The notes beneath the pieces are model-generated. The model worked only from the letters and a program-made list of their open reading frames with translations, did not search any database and was not told the origin of the DNA. A program made the translations under genes and the position numbers. Of a DNA stretch of 13,122 bases, positions 5,223 through 13,072 are shown piece by piece. The stretch is from a virus: UHGV virus genome UHGV-0105863; one strand, written 5' to 3'. Positions within the stretch are counted from its first letter, which is position 1, and each line of letters begins with the position of its first letter.

Positions 5223-5239
5223 CTAAATGCCATGGATGG

Positions 5240-5428
5240 TTATTTCCTTAGCACATGAAACAATGTTTGCTTTAATTCCACCCATACAATTATGACCACT
5301 ATAGACAGACAAAAGAAACTGAATGCATTGGCATCACGATCGAAACCTTCTCCGGCACTAAATCCGTAAAAGGTCATAAAAAATATAAAAATTGCGCACT
5401 TTGCAACGTTTACAAATTTTTTCTTCAC
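5240..5428 (-). CDS. Small predicted membrane protein (62 aa, two hydrophobic segments), GTG start
   Basis: In-frame GTG at 5428-5426 (minus strand) is preceded by a perfect AGGAGG (plus 5434-5439), 5 nt upstream. Translation is VKKKFVNVAKCAIFIFFMTFYGFSAGEGFDRDANAFSFFCLSIVVIIVWVELKQTLFHVLRK. The 134-aa version in the ORF track would run antisense through the HExxH gene and has no RBS. Confidence 0.5.
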   Translation of the reverse strand: MKKKFVNVAKCAIFIFFMTFYGFSAGEGFDRDANAFSFFCLSIVVIIVWVELKQTLFHVLRK

Positions 5429-5458
5429 ACCAACCTCCTTAGTTTTGAGCAGGATACC

Positions 5459-5824
5459 ATGAAAAAAGTTAACATTGGAAACGTACCAAAGATGCTCGTT
5501 CCGCTCTTTGAGAGCGGTACAATTGTGTTTTGTAGAGACTTTCCAGAATGGCAACGCCTGCATCAAAAACTTGGTGTGGACGTGCAGGACTCGGATGCCA
5601 ACGGAGCGTCTCATACAATGAGCAGCGAGAATGGTGTTTTGCATGTGATAGGCGTGTTCAATGGCAAACTATCTACTATTGCCCATGAGTGCGCTCACAT
5701 GGCATTCGATATCTGCTCAAGGGTCGGTGTTGATGTTGAACCAGGAAGAGCCAACGAGACTTACTGCTACTTAATGAGCAGGCTTGTTGAGTTCTGCGAG
5801 CGACATATCAAAAAGCCGGAGTGA
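5459..5824 (+). CDS. HExxH zincin-like small protein (121 aa), putative metallopeptidase-fold
   Basis: ATG at 5459 with AGGA 4 nt upstream. Contains IAHECAHMAFDI (an HExxH motif) with glutamates about 20-25 residues downstream (VEPG, NETY) that could act as the third metal ligand. Stop lies inside a hairpin followed by a T-rich tract. Confidence 0.7.
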   Translation: MKKVNIGNVPKMLVPLFESGTIVFCRDFPEWQRLHQKLGVDVQDSDANGASHTMSSENGVLHVIGVFNGKLSTIAHECAHMAFDICSRVGVDVEPGRANETYCYLMSRLVEFCERHIKKPE

Positions 5825-5846
5825 CCCGGCTTGATTATTACTTTTT
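5808..5846. terminator. Hairpin between convergent genes, candidate bidirectional terminator
   Basis: AAGCCGG (5813-5819), 6-nt loop, CCGGCTT (5826-5832). Downstream on plus is GATTATTACTTTTTG. On minus only about 3-5 U follow the stem, so it is weaker in that direction. Confidence 0.45.
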
Positions 5847-6017
5847 GCTGTCTGGAGTTCGCTTATCTAATACCCAGCCATGACCTGGCTGTGTTGTTGG
5901 CGGAAGCCTTTCGTTGTCCTTGACGGTGGCAAAATTGTCTTTCTTACCGCCGCGCGGGCCAACCTCTTGGTATATTCCGCCGTTTTTTCCTGTGTTTTCA
6001 CCTGGTTTTTTCGCCAT
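5838..6017 (-). CDS. YjzC-like small protein (59 aa)
   Basis: ATG at 6017-6015 (minus) with GAGGT 7 nt upstream. MAKKPGENTGKNGGIYQEVGPRGGKKDNFATVKDNERLPPTTQPGHGWVL... matches my memory of the YjzC-like small protein family (G-x-Y-x-E-V-G ... P-x-T ... G-x-W). The MLRYI start at 6032 in the ORF track has no RBS. Confidence 0.6.
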   Translation of the reverse strand: MAKKPGENTGKNGGIYQEVGPRGGKKDNFATVKDNERLPPTTQPGHGWVLDKRTPDSKK

Positions 6018-6094
6018 GATATACCTCAACATACACCCGTTATTGGGCGATTAAATATTGATCTCATTTTATAAGTAGTCAATATGGCCCAGGC

Positions 6095-6126
6095 AAATGA
6101 AAAAATTAACCAGCCATCAGGCTGGT
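6095..6126 (-). terminator. Rho-independent terminator for the minus-strand secreted-protein gene
   Basis: ACCAGCC (6109-6115), loop ATCA, GGCTGGT (6120-6126). On the minus strand the hairpin is followed by UAAUUUUUUCAUUU. It sits directly after the stop codon at 6128-6130. Confidence 0.6.
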
Positions 6127-6127
6127 A

Positions 6128-6310
6128 TTAGTCACATTCTATTTCTTTTGTCGAGGTCCATACATAAGGATCTGAGCAAACAACCTCTCCATTTATCATG
6201 ACGTCATAGCCCATTAGATATGAGTTACCACCAACAACCTGGGCGGCGATGACGCTAATGCTGGCGGCGCAGGCTGCACCAAAAACGAAACCAATTAATA
6301 TATTTTTCAT
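6128..6310 (-). CDS. Small exported protein (60 aa) with N-terminal signal peptide and two Cys in the mature part
   Basis: [24 protein letters not shown] is a signal-peptide-like N-terminus without a canonical lipobox. The mature part of about 36 aa has Cys at positions 45 and 59. The gene has its own terminator. Confidence 0.55.
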
Positions 6311-6341
6311 TTTGATTCCAAATAGTTATAGGATGAAAGTT

Positions 6342-6527
6342 ATGACCATAGAAGAACGCCTGAACAACATTGAGTTGAACCAAACCTTGCTTGACCAGCG
6401 ACTTTCAGATCTTGAGCTTAAAGATCTAGATGCGCAAATATCAGAAGCAGAAGCCAAGCTCTCCAGCTTAAACCACCGTAAGAAGCAAATCCGCAACAGA
6501 ATTACTCAGGGACGCGGAAGCTGTTGA
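6342..6527 (+). CDS. Small coiled-coil protein (61 aa); alternative start at 6333
   Basis: AGGA at 6330-6333, 8 nt before the ATG at 6342. Translation MTIEERLNNIELNQTLLDQRLSDLELKDLDAQISEAEAKLSSLNHRKKQIRNRITQGRGSC has heptad-like L/I spacing. The 3' end overlaps orf69 convergently by 26 nt, so reality is uncertain. Confidence 0.4.
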   Translation: MTIEERLNNIELNQTLLDQRLSDLELKDLDAQISEAEAKLSSLNHRKKQIRNRITQGRGSC

Positions 6528-6711
6528 GGTGGGATGCTAGGTCTCTATCGTTAAAATCAAGGCTGCTAATCATTTCATTGTAAATGGCGTTTTTATCTTC
6601 CATTGGCAGTCTTGAGTAAACCAGACACAGAGCATATTTCAGGGAGTTTAGCTCTTTCTCTAGCTCTTCCTTGCTTGACGTTGTTGACTTAATAAACTGT
6701 TTTTTATTCAT
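6502..6711 (-). CDS. Hypothetical 69-aa protein, translationally coupled downstream of mnt
   Basis: Its ATG (plus 6711-6709) overlaps the mnt stop (ATGA), and AAGGA lies 6 nt upstream inside the mnt 3' end. Translation MNKKQFIKSTTSSKEELEKELNSLKYALCLVYSRLPMEDKNAIYNEMISSLDFNDRDLASHLNSFRVPE is acidic and helical. Confidence 0.6.
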   Translation of the reverse strand: MNKKQFIKSTTSSKEELEKELNSLKYALCLVYSRLPMEDKNAIYNEMISSLDFNDRDLASHLNSFRVPE

Positions 6712-6959
6712 TTTGCATCCTTACCATACATGGTCTTTAGCGTCTCAACATCGTGTTCAAGATCTATCAATCGTGATGCTATAGTTGCAAGGTCTAGTGC
6801 TTGAATGTGTTTATTTTTTTCGGTCCACGCTTCAAGTGCCGCGACCATCTCAGCATTTAATGAACGAGAATTAGCCTCAGCCAGTTCAATAAGACGTTCC
6901 TTTATCTCTACAGGAAGCCTCAGATTCACTTGAGGGTTTTTGTACTTACGATCAGACAT
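6708..6959 (-). CDS. mnt: Mnt-like ribbon-helix-helix repressor (83 aa), maintenance-of-lysogeny repressor of the immI region
   Basis: 83 aa, the same length as P22 Mnt. The N-terminal RHH signature NLRLPVEIKERLIELAEANSRSLNAEMVAALEAW is followed by a helical C-terminus. It is divergent from arc-ant, as in P22 immI, with AGGA 7 nt before the ATG. Confidence 0.85.
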   Translation of the reverse strand: MSDRKYKNPQVNLRLPVEIKERLIELAEANSRSLNAEMVAALEAWTEKNKHIQALDLATIASRLIDLEHDVETLKTMYGKDAK

Positions 6960-7064: not shown

Positions 7065-7205
7065 ATGAAGGTAAAAACACTGCGTATGCCAGAGAAGCTA
7101 GAAAAAATTCTTGAAGAAAAAGCAAAGGAAGAGTGTCGCTCATTCAGCGCAGAAGTAATTAAACGGGTGCTGGACAGCCTGAGGAGAGAGGGGATAACGG
7201 TGTGA
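7065..7205 (+). CDS. arc: Arc-like ribbon-helix-helix repressor (46 aa)
   Basis: GGAGG 6 nt upstream of the ATG at 7065. MKVKTLRMPEKLEKILEEKAKEECRSFSAEVIKRVLDSLRREGITV aligns by eye with P22 Arc (..RWPREVLDLVRKVAEENGRSVNSEIYQRVMESFKKEG..). It is below the 60-aa cutoff of the ORF track. The frame is intact. Confidence 0.8.
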   Translation: MKVKTLRMPEKLEKILEEKAKEECRSFSAEVIKRVLDSLRREGITV

Positions 7206-7227
7206 TTCGCTTGGATGCGGCAAAGAA

Positions 7228-7303
7228 ATCAAAACAGTGAAGCCCCAACTGCTGGAACAGTTAGGGCTTCGGTATCGTAAAACCACGCATAGGAATTAAC
7301 GAC
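7228..7303 (-). ncRNA. sar: sar-like small antisense RNA covering the ant ribosome-binding site and start codon
   Basis: A minus-strand promoter sits just inside ant, with a predicted start near plus 7303. The minus-strand terminator is a hairpin GAAGCCC/GGGCTTC (7239-7270, with inner stem AACTG/CAGTT) followed on the minus strand by ACUGUUUUGAUUUCUUU. Predicted length of about 70-75 nt matches P22 sar (about 69 nt from memory). Confidence 0.5.
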
Positions 7304-8227
7304 ATGAAAAGTATAGCAACAGCAGTATCTACTATCAATGTACCATTCCACGGCGCAGAGCTTTATGTTGTCAATCACAACGGCGAACCGTATACCCCAA
7401 TGAAACCTATCGTTGAGGGAATGGGGCTAGACTGGAAATCTCAACATAAGAAGATTTCTCAACGCTTCTCGAAGGGTATGGTGGAAATCACCATACCTTC
7501 TGCCGGTGGGGTGCAAGCCATGATTTGTATGGCTTTACGAAAATTGGCAGCTTGGTTGAACAGCATCAGTCCTAACAAAGTCCGCCCTGAAATCCGCGAC
7601 AAGGTAATCCAGTATCAGGAAGAGTGTGACGATGTGCTCTACGAGTACTGGACTAAAGGCCATGTAGTTAACCCACGCAAAGCTAAAAAGGCGTTGCCGG
7701 GTAAAATCACCACTGAACAGCAGGAAGCCATTAAACAACTCGTCATGAGTCGCGGTCAGTCTCTGCCAAAAGAAAAACAGGCGAAGGCGATGATCACCAT
7801 GTGGTCGTCACTGAAATCCCATTTTGGATGTTCGTACAAAGAAATCAGTGATGAGCAGTTTACCGAAGCACTGTCACTTGCTGCTCGCGTTCCGCTTGAA
7901 GGTGAGTTCATTGGCAAACAAGAGAAGAAAACCAACGAGCTTTCTGCAAAAGAAGCAAACAGCCTTGTATGGCTATGGGATTATGCCAACCGCTCACAGG
8001 CATTATTCCGCGAATTGTATCCGGCGCTAAAACAAATTCAATCGAACTATTCCGGCAGATGTCATGACTGCGGTTATGAGTTCTCCCGTATTATCGATAT
8101 GGCGAGAGACGTTTTAATCAATCACACACGAGATGTTGATATCAATGAGCCAGACGGACCAACGAATCTTTCCGCATGGATGAGACTTAAGAATAAAGAA
8201 TTACCTCCTTCAGTACATAACTACTGA
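7304..8227 (+). CDS. ant: Ant-like antirepressor (307 aa)
   Basis: Lies directly downstream of arc, as in P22 immI. Size is close to P22 Ant (about 300 aa). The N-terminal region resembles the phage antirepressor N-domain by memory. AGGA lies 9 nt before the ATG. Confidence 0.75.
   Translation: MKSIATAVSTINVPFHGAELYVVNHNGEPYTPMKPIVEGMGLDWKSQHKKISQRFSKGMVEITIPSAGGVQAMICMALRKLAAWLNSISPNKVRPEIRDKVIQYQEECDDVLYEYWTKGHVVNPRKAKKALPGKITTEQQEAIKQLVMSRGQSLPKEKQAKAMITMWSSLKSHFGCSYKEISDEQFTEALSLAARVPLEGEFIGKQEKKTNELSAKEANSLVWLWDYANRSQALFRELYPALKQIQSNYSGRCHDCGYEFSRIIDMARDVLINHTRDVDINEPDGPTNLSAWMRLKNKELPPSVHNY
7310..7338 (-). promoter_or_regulatory. Psar-like promoter on minus strand: TTGATA, 17-bp spacer, TATACT
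   Basis: The -35 is the reverse complement of plus 7333-7338 and the -10 is the reverse complement of plus 7310-7315. It is near-consensus and fires leftward across the ant start codon at 7304. Confidence 0.5.
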
Positions 8228-8270: not shown

Positions 8271-8327
8271 TGCCAAAAATTCACCGTAGCCATGCTGCGG
8301 CCATTCCTTGTATCTGGAGCAAATCAA

Positions 8328-10673
8328 ATGACAGATTCAATAAATGCCAATGTTGTAGTGAGTATGCCTTCGCAACTCTTCACTATGGCTCGTTCTTTTA
8401 AAGCTGTAGCCAATGGCAAAATTTATATCGGTAAAATTGACACTGACCCGGTAAACCCTGAAAACCAGATTCAGGTTTATGTAGAGAACGAAGACGGTTC
8501 TCACGTTCCTGTTTCGCAACCAATCATCATTAACGCTGCTGGATATCCGGTATATAACGGACAGATTGCCAAGTTCGTTACTGTGCAAGGGCATTCTATG
8601 GCTGTTTATGATGCGTATGGTGCTCAGCAGTTCTATTTTCCTAATGTGCTAAAGTATGATCCAGATCAGTTTAGGCAGCAGCTTGCAGTAGTTGATAGCA
8701 ATGTATTGATTTCTGGTGTTCCAGCAAAAGATGTTGTAAATGCCAAAACTGGACGAGCACCAGTAGTTATGACTCGAAAAGTTACAGACCTTCTTCTTGA
8801 TGGTAAGGCTGGGTTGCGTAAAAACTTTGGTGCTGTAGGCGATGGTAGTCATGACGATACACAGGCATTTAATGATCTGTGGGATGCGCTTATGGATCCG
8901 ACATATAAACGCCGCGCAATAGAAACAGACGAGGTTGGTCTGCCATTTATGATACAAAAAGGCCCAGCACTTCTAATTGAAAATGGAACGTTTATTTACA
9001 ATGGGCCTGGTCTCAATATTGAAACATCAGATTCATTTGTATTTAACATATCAGGTGAGAGCAGTATTTCAACAAAGATACTTTTACCAGATGGAGTATA
9101 CCTATTCGATTTCGATAATAACCCTGTTCATGCATATCTAGGGAATATGTCAATTCATGGTGGTAAAGGTGCTGTTCGATACAAATCAAAAGAACGATCA
9201 ACTAACAGCATTCACCTTTTCGAAAATCTTCGCCTGTCGAGATACAAGGAGTGTGGCATAGGGAATAATTCAATCGATATGCCGTATTTCCGAGTGAAGG
9301 GATGCATGTTATACGGGGACCCAGCAAGCCAGACTATTGGTATTTGTGTCTCTGGTTACTCTGCTGGCGGCTTCATTGAGGACTGTGTTATCAGCGACAA
9401 TAGATATAATATAAAACTGGCAGTTGGTGATAATGGCGTGGAGCGTAATGGCCCTGCAACGCCTTTCTATGTCTGCAGGAACGACATGTACCGCACGGGG
9501 CGACGAGCGCCATCAGCATCGTATGACATATGGATTGAGCCTGGTGCTACTACCATCAACTCTGGGAGAGGTATTCAGATAATCCAAAATAAATTTGGGC
9601 AAGAAAACCTAATCGCACCAGATACTCATGTTTTGATCGCAGATGCTGCCGCTACAGGGAGCGGGTTAAATCTCAATGGAGATCGCGCTCATATAGAAAC
9701 ACAGTCAGTTGGTTTTGTGTCTGGCTTACGTTTCGAGGGGAATAACGTAAACTCAGCTAATAGTGGATATATTGCCCCTTTCATTCGCTCATTTACGCCA
9801 AACCTTGGAAATAACAAAATAAATGACCTTTATGACAATGACATGCCAGCAAGAATCATAGAGTTCGCGGGTGGCATAACCCAAAGTCAAATGACTAACC
9901 TTTCACGTACCAACGTCTTTAGTGCAGCCCAATGCATTGCGCTTCAGAAGGGTGTTGAACCTAAGTTGTTATCTAACCTTAATGATGTCTTCCGGCTTGA
10001 GGATCCTTTGGGGTTCTACGTCGGGCATCCTCAAGCTCAGGTTTTACCGTCAGGTTCTCAGCAGATTGGATTTGAATTGATCTACTCTGGGCCGACGTCG
10101 ACGATTGGGGTGAGTAACGCAACAAGATTATCGGTAAATAACTCATATGGAGGGATATCGGAAGCAACTGAAATCACAATGACCGCTTCTGATGGCGTGG
10201 CAGTTGCCACTGTTGTTGGCGGACTTGCTGGTAGGAAGCACTGGATTGATTTCGAGCTTAAGCGCGGGACAACAAACCCTGTTGGTTCTGTTGTTGTGGA
10301 GATAATGGATGCTTCCGGGTCAGTTCTCCAACTTCGTCGTATTATTTTAATAGACACTTTTCCACGCTGGCAGAAAGTCGCCATTCCTTATGTTCCAAAT
10401 GAAGACGGTAATATTGTAGTCAAATTCAGATCTAATCTTTATTCGGCTGGAACGGCAACTAACTTTATTGTCGGAAATCTCAATGTTTACAGGAATGAGG
10501 AGCGAGTCAATACAGGGCATAACTCAGGATTGAGGATGCAATGGAATCTACAACATACCGTAAGAGGTACAAGACACGAGTGGTATGACGCGTCAGGTAA
10601 TTTACGCTCCAAAAATGGGGTGCCGAGTGGGGATGCCGATGGGGTAATCATTAGCGCTAACCCAACATTGTAA
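8328..10673 (+). CDS. Tailspike protein (781 aa): P22-type head-binding N-terminal domain fused to a right-handed beta-helix receptor-binding domain
   Basis: Start taken at ATG 8328 ([12 protein letters not shown]...) with GGAG 8 nt upstream; the ORF-track start at 8292 adds 12 residues absent from P22 gp9. The first ~115 residues (..[34 protein letters not shown]...[14 protein letters not shown]......VLKYDPDQ) match P22 gp9 from memory. Downstream is unrelated and contains [19 protein letters not shown], a typical pectate-lyase-fold motif. Confidence 0.9.
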
Positions 10674-10736
10674 AAATTTGATCTTCGCATAGCTAGAAGT
10701 TACTGTATATAAAAACAGCATTGTGAGGTTATAGAC

Positions 10737-10976
10737 ATGATCAGACGCAACATAATTTCGGAGGCTTTCAGAGCCTCCATTTCTATAAATCCTAAAGGTT
10801 ATCAATACCTTTACACGCATTCTTTCATCTCCGAACTACAGAGGATGGGTATCAATTTCTCAGAAGAGGAGGCTAACAACTGGATATCGAGAGAGCAGAC
10901 TTACTTTGTTGACAAAACCACCGACCATAGCGAAAACCGCCTGTGGATGCTGGCCAATATGGGTAGGGTTCTCTGA
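10737..10976 (+). CDS. Hypothetical protein (79 aa) downstream of tailspike
   Basis: ATG with GAGG 9 nt upstream. No recognisable motif. Sits where P22 carries its conversion genes. Confidence 0.45.
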   Translation: MIRRNIISEAFRASISINPKGYQYLYTHSFISELQRMGINFSEEEANNWISREQTYFVDKTTDHSENRLWMLANMGRVL

Positions 10977-11905
10977 TGTGATTTCCATCACCGGCGTCCG
11001 ACTACGTCGAGCAGCTACTGTCCGTTAACTCGATATGCAATGTTGGTCCTAACACATTGTTGCTTGAAACCAGTGGTGGATATGCCGTGGTTGATGTCTC
11101 TCTGAAACTTAAGCAGAGATGTCAGGTGATGGTCTGCTATGAAGCACATAATCAGATAGCGAAGCTTATGGGGAAATCTTTGATAACGGAGGATGGAGAG
11201 GCGATCGAGGGAGAGGCCCTGGATGATGTCACCGTTGCCGTCGTGGTGACGCATATTATCGTGGATGTGAGAAGTGACAGCGTAGCAGTATAAGGCAGAC
11301 CCACAATCAGGGACTACCGATTTTGATTACTCCACCTTTTCATCAAGCCAATCTGCCCACCATTGCATCATTTCTCTGCATTTATCGTAGTTGATGCAAC
11401 ACTATCACACTGTAATAGCTTATTACTGGTTTGCAGACAGGTAGGCATGAACAGATACCTGCGCATGAAGACGGAACTAGTCCAGATGTGATATTTGTGG
11501 TGATCACATACATCATCAACGATGCTCGTTATGGTGAGTTTGATGACTACCCACTGAAGTGAAAATTGTGTTGTGTACCAAATTGCGTACCAAACTAAAA
11601 TCACAAATTATGAAACCCTTGTTCATGGCGGCTCTCAGGGGTGTTGCGCGTAATCGTGAAACAAAAAGGTAGATTGTTGCTTACCGTCATTCATCATTAG
11701 GTTAAATCCGTTATTTCTGCTGTCTGCCAGAGTATCAAATATCACCGTGCTAATCAGCTTTAGCGCGACAATTTGGCAGCGAGTGACAACAGATCATGTC
11801 AGATAAAAATGAGATAGTAGTCACATTTTCTTGCACTTTATTCCAGCCAGTTCATAAGTATTTCCGTAAAAAGAACAGCTATTTGAAACACCTGAGGGTT
11901 TGCTG

Positions 11906-13072
11906 TTGAAACGCCGTCTTATTATTGCTGCTTCTTTGTTCGTTTTTAATTTATCGTCTGGTTTTGCGGCGGAAAACATTCCTTTTTCACCTCAGCCTCC
12001 AGAGATTCATGCCGGGTCCTGGGTATTGATGGATTACACCACCGGTCAGATTCTCACTGCGGGTAATGAGCATCAACAGCGCAATCCCGCCAGCCTGACA
12101 AAGCTGATGACGGGCTATGTCGTGGATCGCGCTATCGATAGTCATCGCATTACGCCAGACGATATTGTCACCGTGGGGCGTGATGCGTGGGCGAAAGATA
12201 ATCCGGTGTTTGTCGGTTCTTCACTGATGTTTTTGAAAGAGGGCGATCGCGTATCGGTACGTGATTTAAGCCGAGGTTTAATTGTGGATTCCGGAAATGA
12301 CGCTTGTGTTGCTCTGGCTGACTATATTGCCGGTGGGCAACGGCAGTTTGTTGAAATGATGAACAACTATGCCGAGAAGCTGCATCTCAAGGATACGCAT
12401 TTTGAAACAGTGCATGGTCTGGATGCACCTGGCCAGCATAGCTCGGCTTATGATTTAGCCGTGCTTTCTCGCGCTATCATCCACGGCGAGCCCGAGTTTT
12501 ATCATATGTACAGTGAGAAAAGCCTCACCTGGAACGGTATCACCCAGCAAAACCGTAACGGGTTATTGTGGGATAAGACCATGAATGTTGACGGCCTGAA
12601 AACGGGCCATACTTCTGGTGCCGGGTTTAATCTTATTGCTTCGGCTGTAGACGGGCAGCGTCGCCTCATTGCAGTGGTAATGGGTGCTGACAGCGCAAAA
12701 GGTCGTGAGGAAGAGGCAAAAAAATTACTGCGTTGGGGGCAACAAAACTTTACTACGGTGCAAATTTTGCACCGTAGGAAAAAGGTCGGTACGGAACGCA
12801 TCTGGTATGGTGATAAAGAAAATATCGCCCTGGGAACGGAACAAGAGTTCTGGATGGTGCTACCGAAAGCCGAAATTCCACATATCAAAGCCAAATATAC
12901 CCTTGATGGTAAAGAGCTCACCGCGCCAATTAGCGCCCATCAGCGGGTAGGGGAAATTGAACTTTACGACCGTGATAAACAGGTGGCGCACTGGCCGCTG
13001 GTTACCCTGGAATCTGTCGGGGAAGGCAGCATGTTTTCTCGCCTGAGTGATTATTTCCACCATAAGGCCTGA
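11906..13072 (+). CDS. dacD: D-alanyl-D-alanine carboxypeptidase DacD (PBP6b), host chromosomal gene
   Basis: Start taken at TTG 11906 (MKRRLIIAASLFVFNLSSGFA signal peptide) with GAGGG 7 nt upstream, giving 388 aa; the ORF-track start at 11900 gives 390 aa. Contains the class A PBP motifs SLTK (SxxK), SGN and KTG. I recognise the sequence as enterobacterial DacD. Confidence 0.9.
   Translation: MKRRLIIAASLFVFNLSSGFAAENIPFSPQPPEIHAGSWVLMDYTTGQILTAGNEHQQRNPASLTKLMTGYVVDRAIDSHRITPDDIVTVGRDAWAKDNPVFVGSSLMFLKEGDRVSVRDLSRGLIVDSGNDACVALADYIAGGQRQFVEMMNNYAEKLHLKDTHFETVHGLDAPGQHSSAYDLAVLSRAIIHGEPEFYHMYSEKSLTWNGITQQNRNGLLWDKTMNVDGLKTGHTSGAGFNLIASAVDGQRRLIAVVMGADSAKGREEEAKKLLRWGQQNFTTVQILHRRKKVGTERIWYGDKENIALGTEQEFWMVLPKAEIPHIKAKYTLDGKELTAPISAHQRVGEIELYDRDKQVAHWPLVTLESVGEGSMFSRLSDYFHHKA

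Follow-up and report, generated by a model that had tools for sequence, protein, structure and literature searches.

What kind of locus lies between the last ejection gene and mnt of this P22-like sequence? In the window, meaning the whole 13,122-nucleotide stretch that was analyzed (UHGV virus genome UHGV-0105863), the interval covers positions 5223 to 6711 and holds six small ORFs, here designated A to F (Table 1). A first-pass annotation had described these as a single candidate exclusion/defense module in the place where P22 carries sieA. Comparison with related sequences points to another answer: with a probability of roughly 0.8 the interval would consist of at least four cassettes that exchange independently of each other, and not of one system.

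Table 1. Features of the interval and of the neighboring immunity I (immI) region, in coordinates of the window.
Feature	Position	Strand	Basis or remark
ORF A, 62 aa, GTG start, two hydrophobic segments, sieA slot, phrog_21338	5240..5428	-	ORF list, PHROG, hydropathy
5' leader, ribosome-binding site (AAGGAGG) and stretch matching P22 PsieA	5429..5489	-	P22 annotation, alignment
ORF B = hkcC, 121 aa, soluble, putative minimal zincin, phrog_1365	5459..5824	+	PHROG, motif, AlphaFold2
Bidirectional intrinsic terminator between B and C	5813..5832	both	tORF59A of HK620; 't mnt' in P22 records
ORF C = P22 orf59a, 59 aa, basic, Gly/Pro-rich small beta protein, YjzC type, phrog_3202	5838..6017	-	PHROG, Pfam
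Intrinsic terminator after D	6109..6126	-	position equals tMNT of P22/HK620, homologous
ORF D, 60 aa, predicted Sec signal peptide, two Cys in mature part, phrog_37095	6128..6310	-	hydropathy, DeepTMHMM note
ORF E, 61 aa, hydrophilic, probably coiled-coil, late-operon strand, phrog_7586	6342..6527	+	PHROG
ORF F, 69 aa, soluble, phrog_16466	6502..6711	-	ATG overlaps mnt stop (ATGA)
mnt, Arc/Mnt-type ribbon-helix-helix repressor, 83 aa	6708..6959	-	Pfam Arc, 3e-10
arc	7065-7205	+	Arc domain (Pfam); rest of immI region spans 7065..8227
sar antisense RNA	7236-7302	-	Rfam RF00262, 71 bits
ant	7304-8227	+	P22_AR_N and P22_AR_C domains

The upstream flank is a 613-aa gene with the domain PF26808 (Phage_P22_gp16) and the downstream flank a 793-aa gene with PF09008 (Head_binding). 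The DNA of the flanking ejection genes is 88-95% identical to that of P22, CUS-3, and HK620. The P22_gp16, Head_binding, and sar matches, together with a host dac-type gene at the right end of the window, define a prophage context, and the interpretation of the interval as accessory, moron-type DNA inside an integrated P22-like prophage is supported. Very likely it represents the left part of the 'ant moron', the hypervariable region of P22-like (Lederbergvirus) phages that extends from ejection gene 16 to the tailspike gene. For this region 'ten types in sixteen genomes' and a rapid flux have been reported (Villafane, Casjens et al. 2008, PMC2629481), so the locus cannot be called undescribed, as it had been at first. 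The likeness to the ant morons of that study and of HK620 (AF335538) concerns the place, between the homologs of gene 16 and gene 9, the core of mnt, arc, sar, ant, hkcC, orf59a, tORF59A, and a tMNT-equivalent terminator, and the habit of gene sets that differ among relatives. Here the immI elements, hkcC, and orf59a are all present between the gene 16 and gene 9 homologs, within the late operon. In difference to the described ant morons, mnt is separated from its terminator by the inserted D, E, and F, and A is found in place of sieA/hkcB. The interval is largely ordinary, another variant of a known fluctuating region with genes that are catalogued but uncharacterized. Its reported AT-richness holds in part: the GC content is lower than that of the window (42.6% versus 45.9%), but the difference is modest and uneven, with 35% in A, 40% in D and F, and 46% in B-C.

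All six small ORFs, on alternating strands, were recovered as first annotated. Each of them aligns along its whole length with a PHROG family (E 1e-30 to 1e-51), and in related loci most polymorphic sites fall on the third codon position (B 27/31, C 35/54, D 6/8, E 24/36, F 13/18). Because of these matches and this bias the six ORFs are coding and real genes. That some of them, especially D, E, and F or the GTG-initiated A, are chance frames in an AT-rich spacer is very improbable, even though the ORFs are very short, A and D are often missed by PGAP, and D, E, and F are rare, near-invariant orphans without diverged homologs in 50,697 phage records. Against it stand, besides the third-position bias, the absence of any internal stop across 7-34 alleles of D, E, and F, the end-to-end PHROG matches, the Shine-Dalgarno-like sequences upstream of all six ORFs, and the homologs of A in Salmonella and Serratia, which have the same length of 62 aa, ATG starts, and 77-81% identity.

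The comparison across P22-like prophages, based on some 118 loci of IMG/VR and on 5,426 complete E. coli genomes, bears on the claim that the six genes form a unit. At least 11 presence/absence combinations were found with tblastn, and the module breaks seen by megablast lie at gene boundaries, near 5426, 6126/6127, 6342, and about 6527-6539. The similarity of Emek to the window begins exactly at 6342, the start of E. Annotated variants exist in Kapi1, Emek, CUS-3, HK620, and two E. coli prophages, and P22's own pattern (-BC---) is dominant among the B-anchored loci (60 of 80). The full six-gene set was seen on two metagenome contigs only. None of the 5,426 complete E. coli genomes carries the whole interval in one piece, and the combination of A, hkcC, orf59a, D, E, and F is absent from the sequenced phages and complete E. 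coli genomes searched. The six genes do not move together as one block.

One co-inherited, prophage-expressed island for exclusion, defense, or anti-defense that replaces sieA would agree with six real genes in a moron-type region, with the location of A behind the PsieA region, and with the exact six-gene order on the two metagenome contigs. The co-occurrence data have already largely refuted it, as at least 11 other combinations exist with breakpoints at gene boundaries; moreover, P22 has B and C alongside sieA, B and E are located on the late-operon strand, and matches to defense models in PADLOC, Pfam, or NCBIfam are lacking. We consider a single island to be highly improbable and retain the reading as separately exchanging cassettes. 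In the searches of PADLOC-DB v2, NCBIfam, and Pfam none of the six proteins gave a match above threshold or to a known defense family; PADLOC returned only coiled-coil noise for E (PbeC 7e-4 and JetC 7.5e-3), on short stretches of models with 650-1365 positions. The designation as defense module is not borne out for any of the six proteins, and the exclusion/defense idea is left standing for A alone, by positional analogy.

The P22-annotated PsieA promoter matches positions 5459-5489 and overlaps the first codons of B on the opposite strand. A and P22 sieA have the GTG start, the ribosome-binding site, and 74 nt upstream in common, with one base different, and their divergence begins just past the GTG start codon. 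The junction CACACCAACCTCCTTAGTTTTG is common to four different cargo genes. In relatives, the cargo behind PsieA is SieA, a 122-aa Sf6 gp38-like protein, a 102-aa secreted protein, a Rap1a-domain protein, hkcB, or A. As judged from these alignments, the sieA slot is a cassette in which various genes swap behind one PsieA region, ribosome-binding site, and GTG start. The position would be a fixed expression socket: at least five small envelope or secreted proteins that are unrelated to each other use one promoter region, ribosome-binding site, and GTG, and its cargo provides a candidate list of alternative exclusion or conversion genes to set against SieA. The ORF list upholds the statement that a SieA-sized ORF is missing. 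The statement that all six ORFs stand instead of sieA had to be narrowed, as only A fills the slot and B and C already adjoin sieA in P22.

With P22 SieA (Leavitt et al. 2024, PMC10883804), A shares the slot, the PsieA region, the leader, the ribosome-binding site, and the GTG start, and it is likewise hydrophobic and presumably an inner-membrane protein; however, A has 62 aa and two hydrophobic segments, compared to 164 aa for SieA. The sieA gene is carried by only 22 of 66 P22-like phages (PMC10883804). A truncated SieA was ruled out, as BLASTP of A against P22 SieA gave no real similarity (E=0.25 over 27 residues) and same-length homologs of A are conserved. SieA has four transmembrane helices. 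Members of its family are expected to be homologous to SieA type A, B, or C, to measure about 160-200 aa, and to have four transmembrane helices by prediction, and A falls outside this family. The slot position makes exclusion by A plausible by analogy. T4 Imm is a small membrane exclusion protein of the kind that A would resemble. Tentatively, and at well below even odds, A may be an inner-membrane protein of the lysogen that interferes with the DNA entry of incoming phages.

B and C are 97-100% identical to the P22 hkcC and orf59a proteins, and the hkcC/orf59a segment as a whole is 98.4% identical to P22. Being P22's own genes, they stand beside sieA and are not substitutes for it. B carries the motif HECAH, with H76-E77-x-x-H80 followed by E100, a Glu 20 residues on (HExxH-x19-E). 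The family of B comprises 498 clusters of ~120-aa proteins at E<=1e-3, and in 36 members with 25-44% identity the residues G49, H76, E77, H80, and E100 are invariant. The AlphaFold2 model of B is of the alpha/beta type (pLDDT 86) and places H76, E77, H80, and E100 on the helices 71-89 and 100-116. HExxH-x19-E is a gluzincin-type metallopeptidase signature, and B carries it within a confidently predicted fold; its peptidase activity is putative. The spacing between HExxH and the Glu is that of thermolysin-type gluzincins. Like the minimal zincins (SprT-like PF10263, M78/ImmA-IrrE PF06114, PDB 3e11), B has the HExxH on a long helix, the invariant Glu on the following helix, 20 residues further on, and a beta-sheet N-terminal to the motif, and with ~120 aa it is close in size to the 'zincin-like' PDB 3e11 (~110 aa). 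Members of the B family match SprT-like, DA1-like, and M78 models of Pfam below threshold. Against recognized peptidase families B gave no significant sequence or fold match, no Pfam family covers it, and profile searches of PDB sequences with B and C returned no matches.

Against PF14168 (YjzC), C reaches 18.7 bits (E=0.002), less than the gathering threshold of 25 bits; the family itself has no assigned function. Distant homologs of C (P0267, P0275-P0279) carry PF14168, the UniRef name of relatives is 'YjzC family protein', and the motif G-x-Y-x-E-x-GPRGG is conserved. In the literature, hkcC and 59a are listed as P22 genes of unknown function (PMC2629481), and functional work on hkcC, orf59a, or YjzC was not found there. 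The hkcC gene is absent from the P22 reference annotations and its name is taken from HK620. P22 carries a conserved putative mini-zincin gene outside these annotations, paired with orf59a; the pair recurs in unrelated phages, and P22 genetics offers a direct route to it. We also considered B as an ImmA-like protease for the immI repressors and rejected this, since tail-gene clusters and HK620, in which mnt, arc, and ant are missing or degraded, have the pair, too.

The linkage of B and C raises the question of whether they work together. In a two-component system, C in the lysogen would hit a host or phage target, and the late mini-zincin B would cleave or counteract C or this target and thus spare the phage's own lytic growth; the pair would then unite exclusion with cognate self-immunity, or a protease with its inhibitor. 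In favor of such a system, the convergent pair, with stop codons 10-35 bp apart, is kept in several unrelated settings: in P22-like phages of Salmonella, E. coli, Morganella, Proteus, and Xenorhabdus, in siphovirus prophages of Klebsiella and Rosenbergiella and one metagenome contig, in a Pasteurellaceae prophage, and in contigs in which B is only 43% identical. C is present at 69 of the 80 B-anchored IMG/VR loci, and the pair persists in HK620 despite degraded mnt, arc, and ant. B is encoded on the strand of the neighboring late or early phage operon and C always on the opposite one, which suggests opposite expression programs. However, B occurs without C at 11 of the 80 loci, with a 74-aa membrane protein in C's place, and also at locus L214; B relatives at 36-40% identity all lack C, and C is found without B in four contigs with no phage genes nearby. 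Any physical interaction is hypothetical, and the linkage may reflect just the common terminator and joint transfer. A plasmid with sieA, orf59a, and mnt excludes P22, yet sieA alone suffices (PMC10883804). For the linkage a genome-collection scan (8 loci) was used in addition; the IMG/VR scan with alignment A1 gave near-identical loci only, and the IMG/VR scans with the diverged B homologs P0032 and P0022 gave nothing. Taken together, we regard a functional two-component system as unlikely. The same low weight is given to the wider proposal that the B-C pair is an uncharacterized mobile two-gene system of temperate phages, in which the lysogen-expressed YjzC-type protein and the late-expressed mini-peptidase target one another or something they share, for instance as exclusion with built-in self-immunity, and that, separately, A is a new minimal exclusion protein swapping with SieA behind one promoter.

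On the preferred reading as independent cassettes, expression has to be considered for each part of the interval. The moron architecture that had been claimed stands as far as two hairpin terminators are concerned (5813-5832 and 6126-6109, each about -12 to -13 kcal/mol); promoters are recognized only by homology to the P22-annotated PsieA, and a generic sigma-70 promoter scan gave no excess of sites over shuffled sequence. The expectation that the genes are expressed from the prophage fits the minus-strand genes, which are suitably arranged, with A behind PsieA and F, probably also D, in the mnt operon. It does not fit B and E, which are likelier expressed in the lytic phase because they are located on the late-operon strand. 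Transcription from PLate runs through the region into the tailspike gene (PMC2629481). B, as a zinc peptidase, would be made by PLate read-through during the lytic cycle, and C in the lysogen. As a point against the expression model, RNA-seq of the Kapi1 lysogen, in which D, E, and F are present, did not detect mnt, and genes 060-062 are not treated one by one in that study (PMC12922286). In LF82 the P22-like prophage Gally showed no ant-moron gene above background in LB (PMC9928086); as Gally lacks all six genes, its transcriptome has no bearing on them.

D, E, and F lie between mnt and the terminator that in P22 directly follows mnt. The overlap of the F start with the mnt stop (ATGA) confirms the coupling noted in the first-pass annotation and, as read from the sequence, F is translationally coupled to mnt. 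F extends the leftward operon headed by mnt, and D probably belongs to it as well. Pmnt would transcribe mnt-F-D in the lysogen, and D would be exported to the periplasm. D has an N-terminal hydrophobic segment, and a signal peptide is given in the GenBank DeepTMHMM note on the 97%-identical Kapi1_060. The 3' end of F overlaps E by 26 nt. E would be antisense within the mnt-F-D transcript and, if expressed at all, would be expressed with the late operon.

XhlA proteins typically have a C-terminal membrane anchor. An assignment of E as XhlA hemolysin was rejected, as it reaches 14.1 bits against PF10779 (E=0.056) compared to a cut-off of 34.7 and has no membrane segment; its maximum 15-residue hydropathy is 0.07 and a hydrophobic segment is absent. 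The RefSeq label 'XhlA family' for E comes from a 92-aa extended call.

The interval between the gp16-type ejection gene and mnt (5223-6711) is a new combination inside a known hypervariable accessory region, made of catalogued genes of unknown function. The six small ORFs (A to F) that the first-pass annotation placed here were confirmed by ORF listing and direct reading of the sequence, and each has a full-length PHROG family match (E-values 1e-30 to 1e-51); all six families are annotated as unknown function. In alleles gathered from related loci, polymorphic sites fall on the third codon position in 27/31 cases for B, 35/54 for C, 6/8 for D, 24/36 for E and 13/18 for F (A was left out, as it showed too little variation), and no internal stops were found in any collected allele of D, E or F. 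Homologues of A of 62 aa with ATG starts (77-81% identity) are present in Salmonella and Serratia. On these sequence patterns all six were accepted as coding. By hydropathy A has two hydrophobic segments, D has a single N-terminal one, and B, C, E and F have no such segment; the D copy of phage Kapi1 (97% identical) carries a signal peptide according to the DeepTMHMM call in its GenBank record.

As phage genes are followed by the tailspike and then a host carboxypeptidase gene, the window covers the right-hand end of a P22-like prophage in its integrated state; the right attachment site should lie between the latter two genes. They are separated by about 1.2 kb of small-ORF DNA, which together with the carboxypeptidase gene makes up the region 10700-13072. 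The full-length sar between arc and ant (Rfam RF00262, 71 bits) makes the immI (mnt/arc/sar/ant) control circuit look intact. Arc has just 46 aa. The operator region of Mnt/Arc differs from that of P22. The interval had been called AT-rich, which holds modestly (42.6% vs 45.9% GC for the window) and unevenly (A 35%, D and F 40%, B-C 46%).

Features of the interval, its surroundings and selected related loci (L-numbers)
Feature	Position	Strand	Remarks
gp16-type ejection gene	left of interval		PF26808
ORF A	5428..5240	-	62 aa; GTG start, AAGGAGG ahead of start
ORF B (hkcC)	5459..5824	+	121 aa; HECAH motif
ORF C (orf59a)	6017..5838	-	59 aa
ORF D	6310..6128	-	60 aa
ORF E	6342..6527	+	61 aa
ORF F	6711..6502	-	69 aa; ATG overlaps mnt stop codon (ATGA)
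mnt	6959..6708	-	right of ORF F
arc	7065..7205	+	right of mnt
sar antisense RNA	7236-7302	-	between arc and ant
ant	7304..8227	+	right of sar
Head_binding tailspike	8292-10673		right of ant
host D-Ala-D-Ala carboxypeptidase gene	11900-13072		Peptidase_S11 + PBP5_C
77-aa membrane protein (orf77 of Emek)	L002 4289-4522	-	between mnt and F
77-aa membrane protein (orf77 of Emek)	L005 3367-3600	-	between mnt and F
ClpP-like protease gene (PF00574)	L008 4893-5429	-	between E and mnt
ClpP-like protease gene (PF00574)	L214 2349-2885	-	between gene 16 homologue and B
Rap1a-domain gene (PF18602)	L212 209-562	-	sieA slot
PhageMetallopep gene (PF18894)	L215 1330-1968	+	adjoins B-C pair

The first-pass annotation, largely correct in its observations, read the six genes as a candidate undescribed exclusion/defence module, and the reading as one module did not hold. 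By megablast against phage records, positions 5426-6126 are 98.4% identical to P22 itself; this segment spans the sieA start codon, B, a bidirectional terminator and C, and its P22 counterpart is located between sieA and mnt. In the HK620 annotation B is hkcC, the orf59a-like ORF is 'HkcD' and the two terminators are tORF59A and tMNT. Of 5,426 complete E. coli genomes, 379 contain some part of the interval, only 12 have 80% of it or more and none has it intact; the match edges coincide with gene boundaries. Kapi1 carries D, E and F without A, B and C, and Emek carries E and F beside other neighbours. When the six proteins were compared by tblastn with IMG/VR loci, at least 11 gene combinations were found and ABCDEF was absent from both the B-anchored (80) and the F-anchored (38) loci. 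The B-anchored loci hold BC (60), BEF (5), BCE (4), BCDEF (3), ABEF, ABE, BE and BCDE (2 each), the F-anchored ones EF (22), DEF (6), BEF (5), BCDEF (3) and ABEF (2). The same six-gene arrangement with 100% protein identity turned up on just two metagenome contigs, probably of the same phage lineage. Nor is the region undescribed, as it is the ant moron, for which the same behaviour was reported, with 'ten types in sixteen genomes', and whose P22 genes, some of known and some of unknown function, are listed as sieA, hkcC and 59a (Villafane et al., 2008; PMC2629481). In some relatives the ant moron also includes a gene for a 178-aa ClpP-like protease.

That sieA had been replaced is true of A, which alone of the six is its positional replacement; B and C stand beside sieA in P22. 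Apart from one base, P22 shares the 74 nt that lead up to the start codon, which include its annotated PsieA and the AAGGAGG ribosome-binding site; the GTG start is likewise common, and divergence begins directly after it. The identical junction sequence is found in E. coli strain 165 ahead of a 122-aa Sf6 gp38-like gene and in Kapi1 ahead of a 102-aa signal-peptide gene. In the 80 B-anchored loci, the slot is occupied by SieA (11), the 122-aa Sf6 gp38-like type (11), A (4), the Kapi1 type (2) or others (52), and sieA was reported in just 22 of 66 P22-like phages (Leavitt et al., 2024; PMC10883804). The common set of expression signals in the sieA slot, a socket for different genes, is a modest lead. 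Because the expression signals are common to both, A would be expressed like sieA. A search for similarity of A to SieA gave none; phage exclusion by A is a reasonable guess by analogy. In another P22-like prophage the slot holds a 117-aa Rap1a-domain protein (4.8e-15), an unexpected cargo, as this domain is familiar from type VI secretion immunity proteins.

The hkcC ORF is present in P22 at 100% protein identity, overlapping the annotated PsieA promoter on the opposite strand, and is unannotated in NC_002371 / AF527608 (13862-14227); it is called in HK620 and in RefSeq prophage annotations. Among 1.84 billion representative proteins, a profile of B retrieved 498 clusters (formed at 50% identity; E<=1e-3), with lengths almost always of 100-140 aa. 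Only G49, H76, E77, H80 and E100 are invariant in 36 family members (25-44% identity), and HExxH with a Glu 20 residues on is the gluzincin pattern. In the confident AlphaFold2 model (pLDDT 86, pTM 0.81), a small sheet precedes two long helices, which bear the motif residues. B could not be formally assigned to a family: Pfam matches are sub-threshold only (SprT-like, DA1-like, M78), and B gave no match against PDB sequences or by Foldseek. The C family (59-61 aa, UniRef label YjzC) shows strong conservation, with 66-80% identity across genera and an invariant GPRGG core; the AlphaFold2 model of C has three strands (pLDDT 88), and a search for structural neighbours gave nothing informative.

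The recurrent linkage of B and C is a new observation. A B homologue followed by a convergent C homologue within 10-35 bp was found, HMM-checked, in P22-like prophages of Morganella, Proteus and Xenorhabdus, in a Pasteurellaceae prophage, on contigs whose B has just 43% identity, and in siphovirus prophages of Klebsiella oxytoca and Rosenbergiella plus one metagenome contig, the siphovirus-type pairs lying between tail-tube genes and the tape-measure gene. B always has the orientation of the surrounding phage operon and C the opposite one. The pair is separable: C is replaced by a 74-aa membrane protein in 11 of the 80 B-anchored loci, no C accompanies the B relatives of 36-40% identity, and one C relative, from compost metagenomes, is solitary. 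This mobile hkcC/orf59a cassette, with a putative mini-zincin gene missing from P22 reference annotations, is a second modest lead. Beside one distant pair (B 43% identical) lies a 212-aa PhageMetallopep gene, so that two genes of metallopeptidase type are close neighbours there.

Searches of PADLOC, NCBIfam and Pfam matched none of A to F to a defence family. An exclusion/defence island is not supported for the whole set; an exclusion/defence role of the B-C pair is a possibility. Expression from the prophage, also proposed earlier, agrees with the orientation of A, C, D and F, which could follow the PsieA and Pmnt transcripts active in P22 lysogens, but not with that of B and E, which in late-operon orientation would most simply be late lytic genes; PLate transcription is described as continuing through this region to the tailspike gene (PMC2629481). 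Published RNA-seq adds little: transcripts of mnt fell below the detection limit in lysogens of Kapi1, whose genes 060-062 were not discussed (PMC12922286), and the ant moron of the LF82 prophage Gally is of another type that lacks all of A to F.

After D, a hairpin (6126-6109) stands where P22 and HK620 have tMNT immediately behind mnt, so D, E and F are inserted between mnt and its terminator; the stem sequence of the hairpin is unlike that of P22/HK620 and matches Kapi1's. F is coupled to mnt. Downstream of F, D follows after 191 nt, and a promoter scan recognised no own promoter for D. E, on the opposite strand between them, converges with F, their 3' ends overlapping by 26 nt (6502-6527). 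F was never seen without E among the sampled loci, and E without F in 10; there are hints of an E-F dependency or antisense interplay. RefSeq labels E as 'hemolysin XhlA family', which was rejected: the label rests on a 92-aa extended ORF, and E itself reaches 14 bits where the cut-off is 34.7 and lacks a membrane segment. D, E and F are rare in isolated phages (1, 3 and 2 phages, respectively, all P22-like), and no diverged homologues of them were found in 50,697 phage records. In some prophages orf77 of Emek lies between mnt and F with overlapping start and stop codons, and thus the mnt operon itself takes up extra small genes.
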